64,000 nucleotides of DNA, taken from Eledone cirrhosa (lineage: Eukaryota). Location of the stretch: the NCBI GenBank assembly GCA_964016885.1, contig OZ024757.1, positions 31,310,001 to 31,374,000 of the forward strand, read 5' to 3'. Positions 2,479 to 57,481 of the stretch are shown here, in pieces. Both the position numbers and the translations under genes were made by a program. The notes beneath the pieces were generated by a model. That model had not been told where the DNA came from and made no database searches. It saw nothing but the letters and a program-made list of their open reading frames with translations. How positions within the stretch are numbered: the first letter of the stretch is position 1; each line of letters begins with the position of its first letter.

Positions 2479-2685
2479 GTTTTAATATAGATGAGATTCT
2501 ACAGGACTAGAACTGTTTCATTCTTTAGAAATTATCAGGAATCTGAGATTCGTGATGATTTCTAAAGAATGAAACAGTTCTAGTCCTGTAGAATCTCATC
2601 TATATTAAAACTTTTATACTCTGCTATGTATTGAGTACCTTACTTACTGTGGTTACCTCCGATTCAACCCGGAATAACGTAACTA
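2479..2685 (+). mobile_element. Penelope-like terminus: inverted HHR arm, direct HHR arm and tail
   Basis: Arms 2479-2537 and 2553-2611 are reverse complements. HHR(+) 2544-2598: tgagattc GTGATGA tttctaaagaat GAAA cag ttctagtc ctg TA gaatctca. HHR(-) 2494-2544 has CTGATAA. Bulged hairpin at 2617-2637. Paralog at 16808-16992. Confidence 0.75.
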
Positions 2686-2907
2686 TCGTTGATGAAGTAA
2701 ACTCCAGTCCGCTTACTCTGGAACTCTTATGTATTTATATGTGAGCTGATAGAGTACAGTCTAAGGATTTACAGAAACCCAAGAAGCTAGATTTAACACC
2801 TTTCTAGTGGGTCCGGGTATGATTTTACATTCATTTAAATTATTGATGTATTGTTTTATTGATATTTTTTATCTGATTGTCCCGAATCTTCTATTATCGA
2901 TTTTTTA

Positions 2908-3062
2908 TCGTATGGTTGATTTTAGACTTGTTCTATGTGTGACGGTATTTTAACGATAGTTATAGCTCTGATTCATCTGAATTATTGAGCCCCCTGCCGC
3001 TCATTTCGAATCTTGTTTATCGTGAACTCGTGCGCCGATTTTTCGATACTCGATCTTTCTAA
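2908..3062 (+). mobile_element. Retroelement 3' tail with bulged hairpin, ending in (TA)n
   Basis: Reverse-complement copy at 53483-53646. Hairpin gctc tgattc atct gaatta tt gagc at 2965-2990. Confidence 0.7.
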
Positions 3063-3131
3063 TATATATATATATATATATATATATATATATAATATAA
3101 GATCAAAAGATGGTTAAAGGAGTTCCATATA

Positions 3132-3198
3132 TTTTATTATGCGCATTTCAAAAACAAACATCATCAAGCAATAATATTTGTGTTTTCATCAGATAAAA
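3132..3198 (-). ncRNA. Type I HHR, intact core (inverted copy of 3277-3345)
   Basis: Exact reverse complement of 3278-3344. Confidence 0.8.
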
Positions 3199-3276
3199 CA
3201 GGAGAACATGATATGAAGGCTAAAAAACACTTGTTGATAGTGCAGTTTTAAATCAACATATTGATTTATCTGATTG

Positions 3277-3345
3277 ATTTTATCTGATGAAAACACAAAT
3301 ATTATTGCTTGATGATGTTTGTTTTTGAAATGCGCATAATAAAAT
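3277..3345 (+). ncRNA. Type I HHR, intact core
   Basis: attttat CTGATGA aaacacaaatattatt gctt gatgatgtttgttttt GAAA tgcgca T A ataaaat. 7-bp stem I, 16-bp stem II with one mismatch, palindromic stem III, AUA site. Confidence 0.85.
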
Positions 3346-3742
3346 ATATGGAACTCCTTTAACCATCTTTTGATCTTATATTATGCATACTCCAGTCCCA
3401 CAAACTGTAGAGTGCTTCTTATCCGATATCTGCATTGCTTTATTGTACTACAATAAAACTCACCTCCTACATTATATATATATATATATATATATATATA
3501 TAAATATATATATATATATATATATATATATAAATGTATGTATATATATATATGTATGTATATAAACATATATATATATACATATATATATATACATATA
3601 TATATATACATATATATACATACATATATATATATATATATATATATATATATATATATATATATATATACATACATATATATATATATATATATATATA
3701 TATATATATATATATATATATATATATACATATCAATGTTAC

Positions 3743-3977
3743 CAACAGGATCCATGATAATCTGATCGCAGACATTGCTTGTATTATTGTTACTGCTTCT
3801 GTTACTACTGCTGTTCTTGCTGCTGCTGCTGCTCTGCTGCTGCTTCTGCTGCTGCTGCTTCTGTTGCTGCTGCTGCTGATGTTGCTGCAGTGGGATTTCC
3901 AGTCACTTTAGTGTCCCTCTTTACAGTATTCTGTGCCAGCGCAGCACCAGAGAAGCCATTGAAAAACAACCGATAGC
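3743..3977 (-). other. Possible exon of a minus-strand gene (5' UTR with CAG repeats, then ATG and [11 protein letters not shown])
   Basis: Acceptor ttttatattttatag|gc at 3977. ATG at 3775. Weak donor TTG|GTAACA after 3743. No family recognised. Confidence 0.3.
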
Positions 3978-4819
3978 CTATAAAATATAAAATAATACAC
4001 ACACACATATATATATATATATATATATATATATATATATATATATACATAAGTATATACATACGTATACACATACATACATTCACACATATGTATATTA
4101 TATATATATATATATATATATATATATATATATATATATATGTGTGTGTGTGTGTATGTATGTATGTATGTATATATATTTATATATATATATGTATGTA
4201 TGTATGTATATATATTTATATATATATATGTATGTATGTATGTATATATATTTATATATATATATGTATGTATGTATGTATATATATTTATATATATATG
4301 TATGTATGTATATATATATATATATATATATATGTATGTATGTATGTATGTATGTATGTATGTATATATATATGTATGTATATATATATGTATATATATG
4401 TATGTATGTATATATATATGTATATATATGTATGTATGTATATATATATGTATATATATATGTATGTATGTATATATATATGTATATATATGTATGTATG
4501 TATATATATATGTATATATATGTATGTATGTATATATATATGTATGTATGTATATATATATGTATATATATGTATGTATATATATATGTATATATATGTA
4601 TGTATGTATATATATATGTATATATATGTATGTATATATATATGTATATATATATATATATATGTATGTATATATATTTATATATATATATATATATATA
4701 TGTATTTATATATACATATATATATATATATATATATATGTATGTATGTATGTGTATATATATATAATATATGTATATAATAGGGATAATGAATAGAAAA
4801 AAACCCAGTATGGCTTCTT

Positions 4820-54474: not shown

Positions 54475-54512
54475 CCTTTTGAAAATCAAAAGAACTGCGA
54501 AACCGGTAAAGG
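54475..54512 (+). ncRNA. Degenerate HHR remnant
   Basis: cctt TTGAAAA tcaaaagaactgc GAAA ccgg TA aagg. Two core substitutions. Confidence 0.4.
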
Positions 54513-54761
54513 AACCAAATAAATATATATATATTTTTTTAAAATAAGCATTCAGTTGCATTTTTGATTTCATCTCTTTTTCTTTATATATATATATATA
54601 TATAGTTTCGTTGACAAGTCTATCAAAATGCCCAGACATGCAGATATATTGCCCTTGGTATGACAGTGTGGTTTTAGCTCAATGCAGGATAACTAGTATA
54701 CTACAGAGCCGTTATAGTTATAGGAATAACCAAAGAGTGCTTAGAAATACATTGTTTTATT

Positions 54762-54808
54762 AGCTAACAGTGTTTCATCCATACACCATGGCAGGAATCA
54801 TCAGAGCC
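54762..54808 (-). ncRNA. Minimal type I HHR, intact core; relative of 16502-16547
   Basis: ggct CTGATGA t tcc tgccatggtgtat gga t GAAA c act g T T agct. The tail has the hairpin ggctc tgtag..ctgca tt gagct (54676-54710) and ends at (TA)n at about 54604. Confidence 0.75.
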
Positions 54809-55052
54809 TATAAACAAGAGTATATCAGTAGTTGCATGCTCCATCGAGCTGCGTCACCAGAACAAGGTTAAAGGACCAGCAGGGGGTCCCGAGGCCAGCG
54901 CTATATGGAAACAGACAGAACACATGATGCACATAATGTCATAAAATGTCTTAAAAATTAAAAAATTACACATATATATATATATATATATATATATATA
55001 TATATATATATATATATATATATATATATATATACATATATATATGTATAAA

Positions 55053-55232
55053 CAAAGAAGGTATGGTTAGATACCAGATGGACCATAACGCACCAGAGTA
55101 CTCGATACTTAGGGTAGTAGGAAAAGAGTCAGGATCCCGACGGCTGAGCTCCAGCCGTTTCGACAGCTAGATCCAAACTAGCTGTCAAAACGTCGCCGGA
55201 GCTCAGCCGTCGGGGTCCTGACTCTTTTCCTA
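55053..55232 (-). mobile_element. Fold-back (55118-55232) plus tail of the 48134 family
   Basis: Arms taggaaaagagtcaggatcccgacggctgagctcc..acagctag and ctagctgtc..ggagctcagccgtcggggtcctgactcttttccta. Confidence 0.75.
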
Positions 55233-56294
55233 TACATACATACATATATATATATATATATATATATATATATATATATATATACATAGATATAGATATT
55301 CTAGCTGGTATCTTGAAGATATGGGGTTCAATCCCTCATAGCTGCCGATGGCAACTTCTTTTCTTATCTTTTAATGGTATCCACCCTATTTTATAAGCTA
55401 CCTTTATAGCATTTGTGTGCTTGAGCACTTTATATATATATATATATATATATAGAGAGAGAGAGAGAGAGAGAGAGAGAGAGAGAGGGAGAGAGATTAC
55501 AATAATCAAAGTTCAGTTTAAGTCATTTATTTGCTTACAATTGTTTCCTCCAAACCGAGGTTTGGATTCTTCGGAGCAACTATTTACTATCACTATTTAG
55601 GGTTTGTGTATATATAATATATTACCATTAAAGGTTTTATTGCATACATAACCATAAATAGTACCCTTAATACTAATATATATATATAAAGAGAGAGAGA
55701 GACATATATACAGATAGATACACACACATATATATATATATATATATATATATATGCTTTTATATATATATAAAGAGAGAGAGACATATATATAGATACA
55801 TACACACACATATATATATATGCTTATATATATATATAAAGAGAGAGAGACATATATATGGATAGATACACACACACATATATATATGCTTATATATATA
55901 TATAAAGAGAGAGAGACATATATATGGATAGATACACACACATATATATATATATATATGCTTATATATATATATAAAGAGAGAGAGACATATATATGGA
56001 TAGATACACACATATATATATATATATATGCTTATATATATATATAAAGAGAGAGAGACATATATATAGATAGATACACACACATATATATATATGCTTA
56101 TATATATATATATTTATATATATATATAAACGTTTCCTATGTTTGCTCAGATAAGTCATAAAAATGTACTCAATTGGGAAGGTCGAGAATATATAACGTA
56201 TGCTCTGTGTGTGACGTACATCATGTGTGTGTGTATGACGTACATTGTGTGTGTGTGTGTGTGTATGACGTACATTGTGTGTGTGTGTGTAGGA

Positions 56295-56690
56295 ACTAAT
56301 ATTAGCAAATGGCCAGACGACATACCATCTACCCGTTCCGCGGCGGTAAACCCCTCATCTGGGATGCCACATACAGTGACATTCTCTCCAGTGGCAACCT
56401 GCTGCAGTCTGTTGCACATCGGGCCGAGGAGGGCAATCTCTCCAGACATCGGTGGCTCTCTCACAGGTTTGTGGTCGAGCCCATAGCAGTGTTGACTTCT
56501 GATGTTCTTGGTCCTAGGACCACTTCCTTACTCACCACCCTCGACACGGATTTGGCTACCCGAGGGTGTGATCCTCGCGACTTGGAATAGCACTTCCAAC
56601 GCGTTTCCCGCACCATCCTCCGGGGAAACACCTCCTCTATTCTGTCCGCCGGGACAGCGAGGAGGTCAGGGCATGGGCTCCCATTTGAAT
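56295..56690 (+). pseudogene. Decayed C-terminal restriction-like endonuclease domain of a CRE-clade non-LTR retrotransposon
   Basis: KWPD/TIYPFRGGKPLIWDATYSD..AEE..L..RFVVEPIAVLTSDVLGP..R..*HFQRVSRTILRGNTSSIL follows the PD..P..G..L.WD.T..AE..P.A.ET.G..G..QR.S..RGN pattern, with a frameshift and a stop. An internally deleted duplicate lies at about 56730-56845. Confidence 0.75.
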
Positions 56691-57291
56691 ATAAAAATAT
56701 ATGGGGGGAGCGAGAGAGACCGAGGCACCTGTCGTTCTCCAAGAGGTTTGCGGTCGAGGATACTTCTGATGTCCTTGAGCCTAGGACCACCTCTTTACCG
56801 GGGCCGCGAGGAGGTCAACGTATGGGCTCCTATTTGTTTATAATATTGAGAGATGGGGAGAGCGAGAGAGACGGAAGCAGTGAGTGAAAGAGAGAAAATA
56901 TCAACGCACACACGCACAGTTCGAGTAGCTTGTATAATTAATCAATAAGTAATATTTTAATACTGTCCTGTAAGAATTTAAGCTTACCGAAATGGCTTTG
57001 TGGTTAAGGAGTTTGCTTCAGACGCAAGCATATATATATATGGAGAAAAAGTGGAATTGGAAATAGCACGGACAATATATATATATATATATATATATAT
57101 ATATATATATATATATATATATATATATATAGTTATACTTGGGGAGGGTCATATTGTTGTAATATTATTGCCAGAAATAATAACAGAACATACTCACAAA
57201 CAGTGAGTGTGTTCTGTTATTAATTGTCAATATTTATTTCGACACACGATTTCATATAAAAAAAACCTTGCAAAACATATATATATATATA

Positions 57292-57481
57292 TAGGAAAAT
57301 GTTTGACCCCGACGGCAGAGCTCAAGCAGTTTCGACGGTAATTTCTGGAAATAGCCGTCGAAACGGCTTGAGCTCTGCCGTCGTGGTCAAACATTTTCCT
57401 ATTACTCACTCTACTACCCTAAGTATTGAGTAGTCAGGTGCATTATGGTCCATCTGGTTCCTTACCACACTTCCTTCGTTG
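57292..57481 (+). mobile_element. Fold-back (57292-57401) plus tail of the 48134 family
   Basis: GAAA cggc ttgagctct gccg TC is a 3' HHR half. Hairpin at 57408-57431. (TA)n on both sides. Confidence 0.78.

Follow-up and report, generated by a model that had tools for sequence, protein, structure and literature searches.

The window, a stretch of 64,000 nucleotides (nt) from contig OZ024757.1 of Eledone cirrhosa (positions 31,310,001 to 31,374,000; genome 3.0 Gb), consists mostly of microsatellite DNA, with short elements set into (TA)n runs. A prediction made earlier from the letters alone (the original prediction) had reported about 15 copies of a small bulged hairpin, RCUC-stem-loop-stem-UU-GAGY, in the tails of these elements. 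Four of the ten element families in the window (A, D, G and H) were traced to open reading frames (ORFs), which by their motifs are Penelope-like elements (PLEs) of the Hydra clade. Sequence comparison indicates that the predicted hairpin is one half of a doubled signal. The hairpin pair likely dictates where the telomerase-related enzyme of these elements starts copying; as start signals, the two hairpins would explain the one-sided tail of the inserted copies.

The bulged hairpin and its base pairing

The pattern RCTC-stem-Y(T/A/C)-GAGY was matched by 14 of the 16 listed copies, with place and strand as predicted. The copy at 16933 is decayed; it carries the single mismatch that had been reported (A.A at the closing pair) and also GGGT in place of GAGT. 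The copy at 40299 is a doubtful variant (Table 1). A strict scan of the window returned 16 matches, namely the 14 listed copies, a new one at 17996-18016 and one at 2723 that probably arose by chance. Local dinucleotide shuffling that preserves the (TA)n runs (300 shuffles) gave 0.45 +/- 0.71 matches (maximum 5). For 14 strict matches a (TA)n run followed within 130 nt, versus 0.11 in the shuffles. A looser scan requiring the closing pair only gave 18 matches versus 1.46 (maximum 8; 4964 shuffles); of these 18, 15 are followed by (TA)n at a distance of 30-100 nt and only 2 are preceded by it. Frames with a 2-nt 3′ bulge numbered 20, those with 0, 1, 3 or 4 nt between 1 and 5. The observation made in the original prediction was confirmed. 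As the motif had already been seen when these scans were designed, they are post hoc, and a covariance model trained solely on 13 equal-length hairpins from other hosts provided an independent test. At E<=10 it yielded 17 hits in the window and recovered 11 of the 16 listed copies on the predicted strand. It added the 17996 copy and a broken copy at 55100, and missed 16933, 40299 and three long-loop copies.

The original prediction placed the hairpin 40-90 nt before (TA)n. The distance from the hairpin end to (TA)4 is indeed 38-86 nt in 15 of 16 copies examined, the exception (2618) being fused to another element; this spacing is not the working register, and the element ends adjoin the hairpins. 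In three copies (3389, 16603 and 54677) a hammerhead core precedes the hairpin by 95-105 nt on the same strand, in agreement with the predicted order.

In only about 4 of the 16 window copies does the proposed structure coincide with the minimum-energy fold. To assess base pairing, frames for 86 distinct hairpins were chosen by sequence only. The bulge-closing pair is Watson-Crick in 82 of them (58 C-G, 24 U-A) versus 48.2 in shuffles; inner pairs 2-4 exceed the shuffle, pair 5 does not. The inner stem had been described as paired apart from the one mismatch at 16933, which holds for the first inner pair, formed nearly always, and less so for the remaining ones. Likewise, the bulge is fixed in length at 2 nt and varies in sequence (UU 59, UC 16, UA 10, UG 1; n=86). 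Loops measure 6-36 nt, and the stems covary. In a model-fitted alignment, which leans toward the model and includes 9 minus-strand hits, 98.7% of cells were paired compared with 83.6% in shuffled sequence and 17-58% with slid partners. On a protein tree of 43 loci the closing pair changed eight times per side and 6 of 6 independent pairs were concordant (p 0.031); for the second inner pair the median p was 0.06. The outer pair occurs as G-C, A-U and U-A, and its predicted covariation is retained with few events: at least two G-C/A-U switches in this genome and at least one change to U-A elsewhere. The 12 letters 5′ of the hairpins are AT-rich.

Hydra-clade parents and the second hairpin

The family A stretch 16490-16690 has 1616 candidates in the genome and occurs in tandem copies with a 5.1-kb unit. 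Its ORF is a single frame of 844 amino acids containing YRDD and IVY...YIG, that is, a reverse transcriptase (RT) with a C-terminal GIY-YIG domain. PLEs are the sister group of telomerase, and the best fold match of the protein model (predicted local distance difference test, pLDDT, 85) was telomerase RT (E 9e-9). A Pfam search assigned no family to two Hydra-type proteins, and a PDB sequence search with the ORF gave only a weak retron RT match (E 0.018). Two copies of residues 1-478 modelled together, with the alignment not used, scored 0.00.

The marks of the Hydra clade, as far as given in the accessible parts of its description (PMC8557442), are RWK, DKT for DKG, CxCx5C, CxxC/CxH around E and N, and a lack of CCHH. 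The family A protein has RWR, DKT, CNCRRALGC in the linker (CxCx5C), and CNLCLAE (CxxC) and CPH (CxH). Among 62 aligned relatives RW[KR] is present in 50, DK[TS] in all 62 and CxCx5C in 42. The D, G and H ORFs carry RWR or RWI together with DKT, and by eye CCHH is absent from Hydra-type ORFs when compared with non-Hydra loci of the same genome. The assignment thus relies on diagnostic motifs; the trees comprise the loci gathered here, and published Hydra proteins were compared by reading. Junctions with (TA)n targets were found as expected of this clade, and a putative hammerhead ribozyme was recognized by pattern match of the core in A and D and as a variant core by eye in G. The elements therefore resemble the described Hydra clade in the RT with C-terminal GIY-YIG, in RW[KR], DKT and CxCx5C, in the hammerhead of the pseudo-long terminal repeat (pseudo-LTR) and in the (TA)n target (PMC8557442). 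They differ in that the family A unit of 5.1 kb exceeds the printed length of <3 kb, a tendency rather than a diagnostic trait (PMC8557442). Penelope-like ORFs with RT and GIY-YIG were found with the hairpin for A, D, G and H. The families had been called sequence-unrelated; this view has to be given up for those traced (A at 16603, D at 3389, G at 48211 and H at 48445), which are all Hydra-clade PLEs. No ORF was traced for B, C, E, F, I and J, which were placed by layout only.

Hydra elements together with their non-coding passengers are very abundant here. The N-terminal part of the family A protein has 23,559 candidates in the genome, of which 144 were scored, and one 24-nt anchor of family D has 19,627 exact matches. 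Family D copies were located by pattern search, as their DNA words are too common for similarity search. No relative was found on viral contigs. Rfam gave no match at gathering score in 12 loci (46,887 bases), a weak negative, as the hammerheads were missed too; among the 150 rows listed of 700 for the window, only sub-gathering microsatellite noise was present.

Some further features of these elements were observed. Variant-core hammerhead-like folds (CUUGAAAAG or CUUGAUAAG for CUGAUGAG) with long stems II and III lie in family G and A2 leaders (L243, L281, L024) and at window positions 48150-48205. In family A a long, N-rich linker, modelled with low confidence, separates RT and endonuclease; in L021:6500-6790 (minus strand) it is replaced in frame by a reversed piece of the element's own 3′ untranslated region (UTR).

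Full-length elements have the order hammerhead, hairpin 1, tail, hairpin 2, ATG. In tandem copies of family A the tailed junction is followed directly by another GCTC-stem-TT-GAGC, which precedes the ATG by about 66 nt; the inverted arms end just before hairpin 1. Three further families of this genome, found by protein, share this layout (18 of 20 loci listed, one of them family A, several cut short upstream). Prediction of a hairpin 2 was examined in the other nine window families with patterns that fix the tail end and a loose S-B-C...GAG frame. Hairpin 2 was present in D (280 pattern matches in the genome), G (about 27 of 69), F (1 of 2 pattern matches) and H (most of the 100 matches listed of 670). 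A DNA search with family C displayed only the 5′ half of hairpin 2, inside a 616-bp tandem unit. This young non-coding unit (L196, L204, L185; window 2690-3062), which combines a degenerate hammerhead with the broken second hairpin, looks retrozyme-like; non-LTR retrozymes are non-coding hammerhead tandem units derived from PLE pseudo-LTRs, and the accessible parts of their descriptions name no cis mobilisation hairpin (PMC7229834; bioRxiv 10.64898/2026.07.22.740005). Hairpin-to-hairpin spacing is 78-106 nt in this genome.

Relatives from other hosts were collected from marine metagenome contigs and contigs of metagenome-assembled genomes (MAGs; 78 and 15 loci). Among 56 leaders, defined as ORF starts with at least 150 nt upstream, both RCTC/GAGY hairpins were present in 35, one in 14 and none in 7, whereas 0 of 273 control windows within ORFs had both. 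Allowing any outer base, the leaders split into 38 with both, 15 with one and 3 with none, and the controls inside ORFs into 0 of 268 with both and 12 with one. Measured from the ORF start, the upstream distance is about 93-137 nt for hairpin 1 and about 34-70 nt for hairpin 2. Three loci (L078, L109, L143) have UCUC/GAGA in both hairpins. Among the published Hydra consensi, inspected by eye, those with the motif come from coral and sea cucumber: the hairpin is present in Hydra-2_Amil and Hydra-2_Ajap and twice before the ATG in Hydra-1_Ajap. A variant was seen in copepod Hydra-1_Crog, and the hairpin is not clear in Hydra-1_Amil and Hydra-1_Obim (PMC8557442). None of 19 non-Hydra PLE loci of this genome carries the hairpin at the 3′ end (about 7 families, many of the loci shortened by microsatellites); a 20th locus contained no long ORF. 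In the supplement of PMC8557442, as far as accessible, 11 of 15 YNGAGCAC places lie outside the Hydra file; none is visibly GCTC-framed, and line breaks may hide matches. Several Neptune-like families and one Poseidon- or Nematis-like family (L325-L344) have long ORFs and (TA)n targets and are devoid of the hairpin. The Hydra PLEs on contigs filed as bacterial MAGs (L152-L166) most likely stem from animal host DNA.

Ends of the inserted copies

The ends of inserted copies lie 2-9 nt upstream of a hairpin, the short end at hairpin 1 and the tailed end at hairpin 2; hairpin 2 itself is consequently not copied at the tailed end. In eight families of this genome 359 anchored places comprised 158 (TA)-joined ends, 72 read-throughs and 129 unclassified places; 155 of the 158 joined ends fell between -9 and +1 of a hairpin start, with TA microhomology blurring the exact end base. 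In other hosts all 11 informative (TA)-joined ends were located at -11 to 0, leaving out one row that duplicated an end and two within a TA run. The original prediction of a cis-acting signal thus stands in that the hairpin is tied to the element ends of PLEs, and its distance to (TA)n is replaced by these ends as the reference point.

Anchors upstream of the short end, which are blind to the tail, returned 15 short and 15 tailed ends in family G and the same counts in D. Two-ended inverted insertions found in this tail-blind way combined a short with a tailed end in 17 of 19 cases in G and 7 of 8 in D, and the other three were unclassifiable. One end of each kind was therefore present in 24 of 24 classifiable insertions; with a free 50:50 choice the chance is about 6e-8, if the insertions are independent, and the G insertions vary widely in length (51-340 nt). 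Another 43 pairs came mostly from tail-bearing queries, their classes being decided by alignment to the tail: 38 were short plus tailed, one was tailed plus tailed, two involved a read-through and two were unclassifiable. Tail-only insertions are rare (50 versus 3860), and 13 of 15 checked stand alone between (TA)n runs. The tail behaves like a PLE tail: one end of the inverted pseudo-LTRs may carry this extension.

Many of the insertions form nearly perfect palindromes whose centres recur at fixed positions. In family D the centres of the inverted insertions cluster about 165 nt upstream of the short end; in G they do so at 55-65 nt, which falls in the loop of hammerhead stem II. These centres may be RT stall or annealing sites. 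Arms stopping at the hammerhead cleavage site were not clearly borne out. Selenocysteine insertion sequence (SECIS) elements and the termini of Helitrons or miniature inverted-repeat transposable elements (MITEs) were ruled out as identities of the hairpin, because the parents are Hydra PLEs whose ends join (TA)n before the hairpin.

The features of the window are compiled in Table 1. Beside them, facing element ends form perfect inverted arms around a (TA)n run at 53692-53777 and 38864-38977, and minisatellite arrays occupy 49000-49410 (about 42-bp units), 21246-24536 (14-bp) and 32334-33252 (27-bp).

Table 1. Hairpins and inserted copies of Hydra-clade and similarly arranged elements in the window
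Feature	Position	Strand	Remarks
Hairpin 1, family B	2618..2636	+	Short palindromic copy; inverted arm ends ~2480; tail continues into family C unit; no second hairpin found for B by exact read-through pattern search of genome (not proof of absence)
Hairpin 1, family C	2965..2990	+	616-bp tandem non-coding unit elsewhere; tailed end ~3062
Family D two-ended inverted insertion	3095..3472	+	Short end ~3095 (minus arm); tailed end ~3472
Parts of this family D insertion	3284-3330; 3389-3413	+	Hammerhead-like core; hairpin 1
Family A two-ended inverted insertion	15569..16691	+	Short end ~15569 (minus arm); tailed end ~16690
Hammerhead cores of this family A insertion	15631-15661 (minus arm); 16506-16536		Hairpin 1 follows the latter
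Hairpin 1, family A	16603..16624	+	Strict scan, covariance model
Hairpin 1, family B, decayed	16934..16952	+	Closing mismatch, GGGT; inverted short end ~16809
Hairpin 1, family E	17293..17314	+	Strict scan, covariance model; no parent traced
Hairpin overlooked in the original prediction	17996..18016	+	Short piece flanked by two (TA)n runs
Hairpin 1, family F	39110..39131	-	One read-through copy in genome displays hairpin 2
Doubtful variant ATTC...GAGT	40299..40318	+	Fails strict scan, looser scan and covariance model
Family D tail-only insertion between (TA)n runs	40467..40556	-	Hairpin 1 at 40526-40550
Hairpin 1, family G	48211..48234	+	Strict scan, covariance model
Hairpin 1, family H (long inner stem)	48445..48490	-	Tailed end ~48404
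Hairpin 1, family C	53564..53589	-	Strict scan, covariance model
Hairpin 1, family I	53854..53897	-	Inverted arm with short end ~54249; tailed end ~53765; no read-through copy found (exact patterns; not proof of absence)
Hairpin 1, family G	54343..54366	-	Strict scan, covariance model
Hairpin 1, family J	54677..54709	-	~95 nt after hammerhead core 54773-54804; no read-through copy found (exact patterns; not proof of absence)
Family G copy, 5′ arm of hairpin 1 deleted	55096..55125	-	Inverted short end ~55233
Hairpin 1, family G	57408..57431	+	Inverted short end ~57291

Possible roles of the hairpin pair

Taking the layout, the covariation, the position of both ends and the one short plus one tailed end per inverted insertion as established from the sequences, we consider it reasonably probable that each hairpin serves as an RT docking site on the RNA and thereby defines one of two internal points of initiation. 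The protein would bind the GCUC/GAGC helix with its 2-nt 3′ bulge and the Y-R closing pair, and the GIY-YIG domain would cut both strands of (TA)n. Each target 3′ end may then anneal to the short UA-rich patch that directly precedes a hairpin, priming cDNA synthesis there. A start before hairpin 2 would copy the tail including hairpin 1, a start before hairpin 1 would produce the short end, and head-to-head joining of the two cDNAs would result in an inverted repeat with the tail on one side only. The strict one-of-each rule would most simply be met by two RT subunits sitting on both hairpins of one RNA, the least supported step. Such a programmed twin priming, with two RT subunits, two 16-25-nt hairpins and one RNA, and with both strands of the cut (TA)n primed at once, is put forward tentatively. 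It is equally tentative that the hairpin would then be a portable, uncopied start signal and the distance between its copies the PLE tail. Short non-coding families might depend on copying in trans or originate from events in which only the leader was copied.

Several observations weigh against initiation at the hairpin pair. Two RTs on the same stretch of RNA would need strand displacement, and the start site of Poseidon, a PLE of another clade, lies in an AC-rich stem-loop and shows no target homology, unlike the UA patch (PMC11167929, as far as accessible). The fold is weak in isolation, which fits a protein-held element. The strand is not settled by wobble pairs (G.U versus A.C 15 to 7 in inner pairs 1-4; 0 G.U and 4 A.C in the outer pair), and the nearly symmetric motif folds on either strand. 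Ends were visible only between -18 and +7, and the unclassified places make up 129 of the 359. With exact read-through patterns no second hairpin was found for B, E, I and J, which is not proof of absence; C has a broken one despite being a young and abundant family, and the inner stem of hairpin 2 is frequently limited to 1-2 pairs. Finally, thousands of short copies lack hairpin 2, so either these are dead ends or hairpin 2 is not always needed.

The same end positions would also be expected if the signal acted in DNA, with the GIY-YIG domain recognizing folded single-stranded DNA (cDNA or donor), nicking nearby and resolving a longer-than-unit intermediate at either hairpin. Folding is possible on either strand, and the wobble counts do not favour the RNA strand; moreover, the tail was ascribed to endonuclease resolution by Craig et al. 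(PMC8557442), and the D. virilis endonuclease required the tail for recognition (as cited in PMC11167929; both sources accessible in part). We nevertheless regard this as unlikely. A plain double-stranded DNA site is ruled out by the combination of covarying stems with a loop of variable length (6-36 nt), cDNA would have to extend past hairpin 2 first, for which nothing in our data speaks, and the only in vitro PLE system makes both ends as RT starts on RNA, according to the accessible parts of PMC11167929. Quite unlikely, too, is a fold-back, in which RT starts before hairpin 2, the cDNA snaps back, and the second strand stops at hairpin 1 and jumps by TA microhomology. It would yield exactly one short and one tailed end with no dimer needed, and suits the near-perfect palindromes and their fixed centres. 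A related self-priming idea exists for an antisense template (PMC3846280), and palindromic junctions of rotifer PLEs were interpreted as self-priming, both statements resting on partly accessible texts. One consensus would, however, have to serve as start and stop signal, and a fold-back forbids a longer short-end arm, which was seen in 11 of 44 G, 3 of 10 D and 1 of 7 B insertions. This opposes it weakly, as four G rows are spoiled by self-reference, the A rows are uninformative and later deletions can mimic the pattern.

A role of the hairpins in translation, RNA packaging or an internal promoter, the ends lying nearby only through pairing of the UA patch with (TA)n, appears very improbable. 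Hairpin 2 does keep a rather fixed distance of 34-70 nt to the ORF start, the 12 letters 5′ of the hairpins are AT-rich, and tail-only insertions could arise by microhomology alone. Yet leaders and 3′ UTRs hold many other AT-rich stretches while the ends stay within about 10 nt of a hairpin, this clustering spans diverged families and hosts, and one end of each kind would be left unexplained. Chance, or common descent without structure, can hardly account for the data: the first scans were post hoc, related copies inflate counts and the fold is weak, but the shuffles, the out-of-sample model, the tree-independent covariation and the slid-partner controls all stand against it, as does the absence of the hairpin from the 19 non-Hydra PLE loci of the same genome.

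Docking of RTs at the hairpin pair can be compared with known systems. In hepadnaviruses the bulged epsilon stem-loop docks the RT and fixes the start of synthesis, its bulge templating a protein-primed start. The original prediction drew this analogy, which by the present reading would extend to docking only: the ends lie outside and 5′ of the hairpin, joined to (TA)n without bulge-templated letters, which leaves the analogy a loose one. In twin priming of L1 both target strands prime on one RNA, which results in an inversion; this happens occasionally, at a second site that is random, and yields non-overlapping arms. In the Hydra elements, unlike L1, both sites would be fixed by a signal and both arms span the same stretch.

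A precedent from another clade is Poseidon of Anolis (Frangieh et al. 2024, PMC11167929): its tail is delimited by two internal sites of RT initiation, cleavage and extension take place on both strands, a dimer is predicted, a hammerhead lies upstream and the target is AT-rich. Its starts lie inside the ORF, in an AC-rich stem-loop without target homology, and its tail of 30-40 bp compares with a hairpin spacing of 78-106 nt here; the accessible parts of that report name neither a repeated signal nor a one-of-each rule (PMC11167929). The 3′ stem-loop of the long interspersed nuclear element (LINE) UnaL2 is likewise a small bulged stem, required in cis and common to non-coding passengers, here the short interspersed nuclear element (SINE) of UnaL2. 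It is single and part of the copied 3′ tail, upstream of where synthesis starts, whereas the Hydra hairpin is doubled, lies in the leader, and stands 3′ of the end it marks without being copied there (PMC1636434, as far as accessible). The Hydra-clade description, in its accessible parts, mentions no hairpin and ascribes the tail to endonuclease resolution (PMC8557442). No description of the hairpin was found in the full-text literature searched, which covered its sources in part and left subscription papers, Repbase reports and some supplements outside its scope. Cis stem-loops for retroelement RTs are already known; what appears to be new is a variant in which the signal is present twice, is left uncopied and defines both ends.

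The literature names as open both the choice of start sites by PLEs and the reason for their inverted, one-sidedly tailed insertions (PMC8557442; PMC11167929, both in their accessible parts). A doubled covarying signal of about 20 nt in fixed register to both ends makes these questions reducible to point-mutation experiments, and the UCUC/GAGA relatives provide a natural test of co-adaptation between protein and hairpin. The hairpin also serves as a sequence tag for Hydra elements and their non-coding passengers and, provided that it is portable, would steer internal initiation on an RNA of choice.

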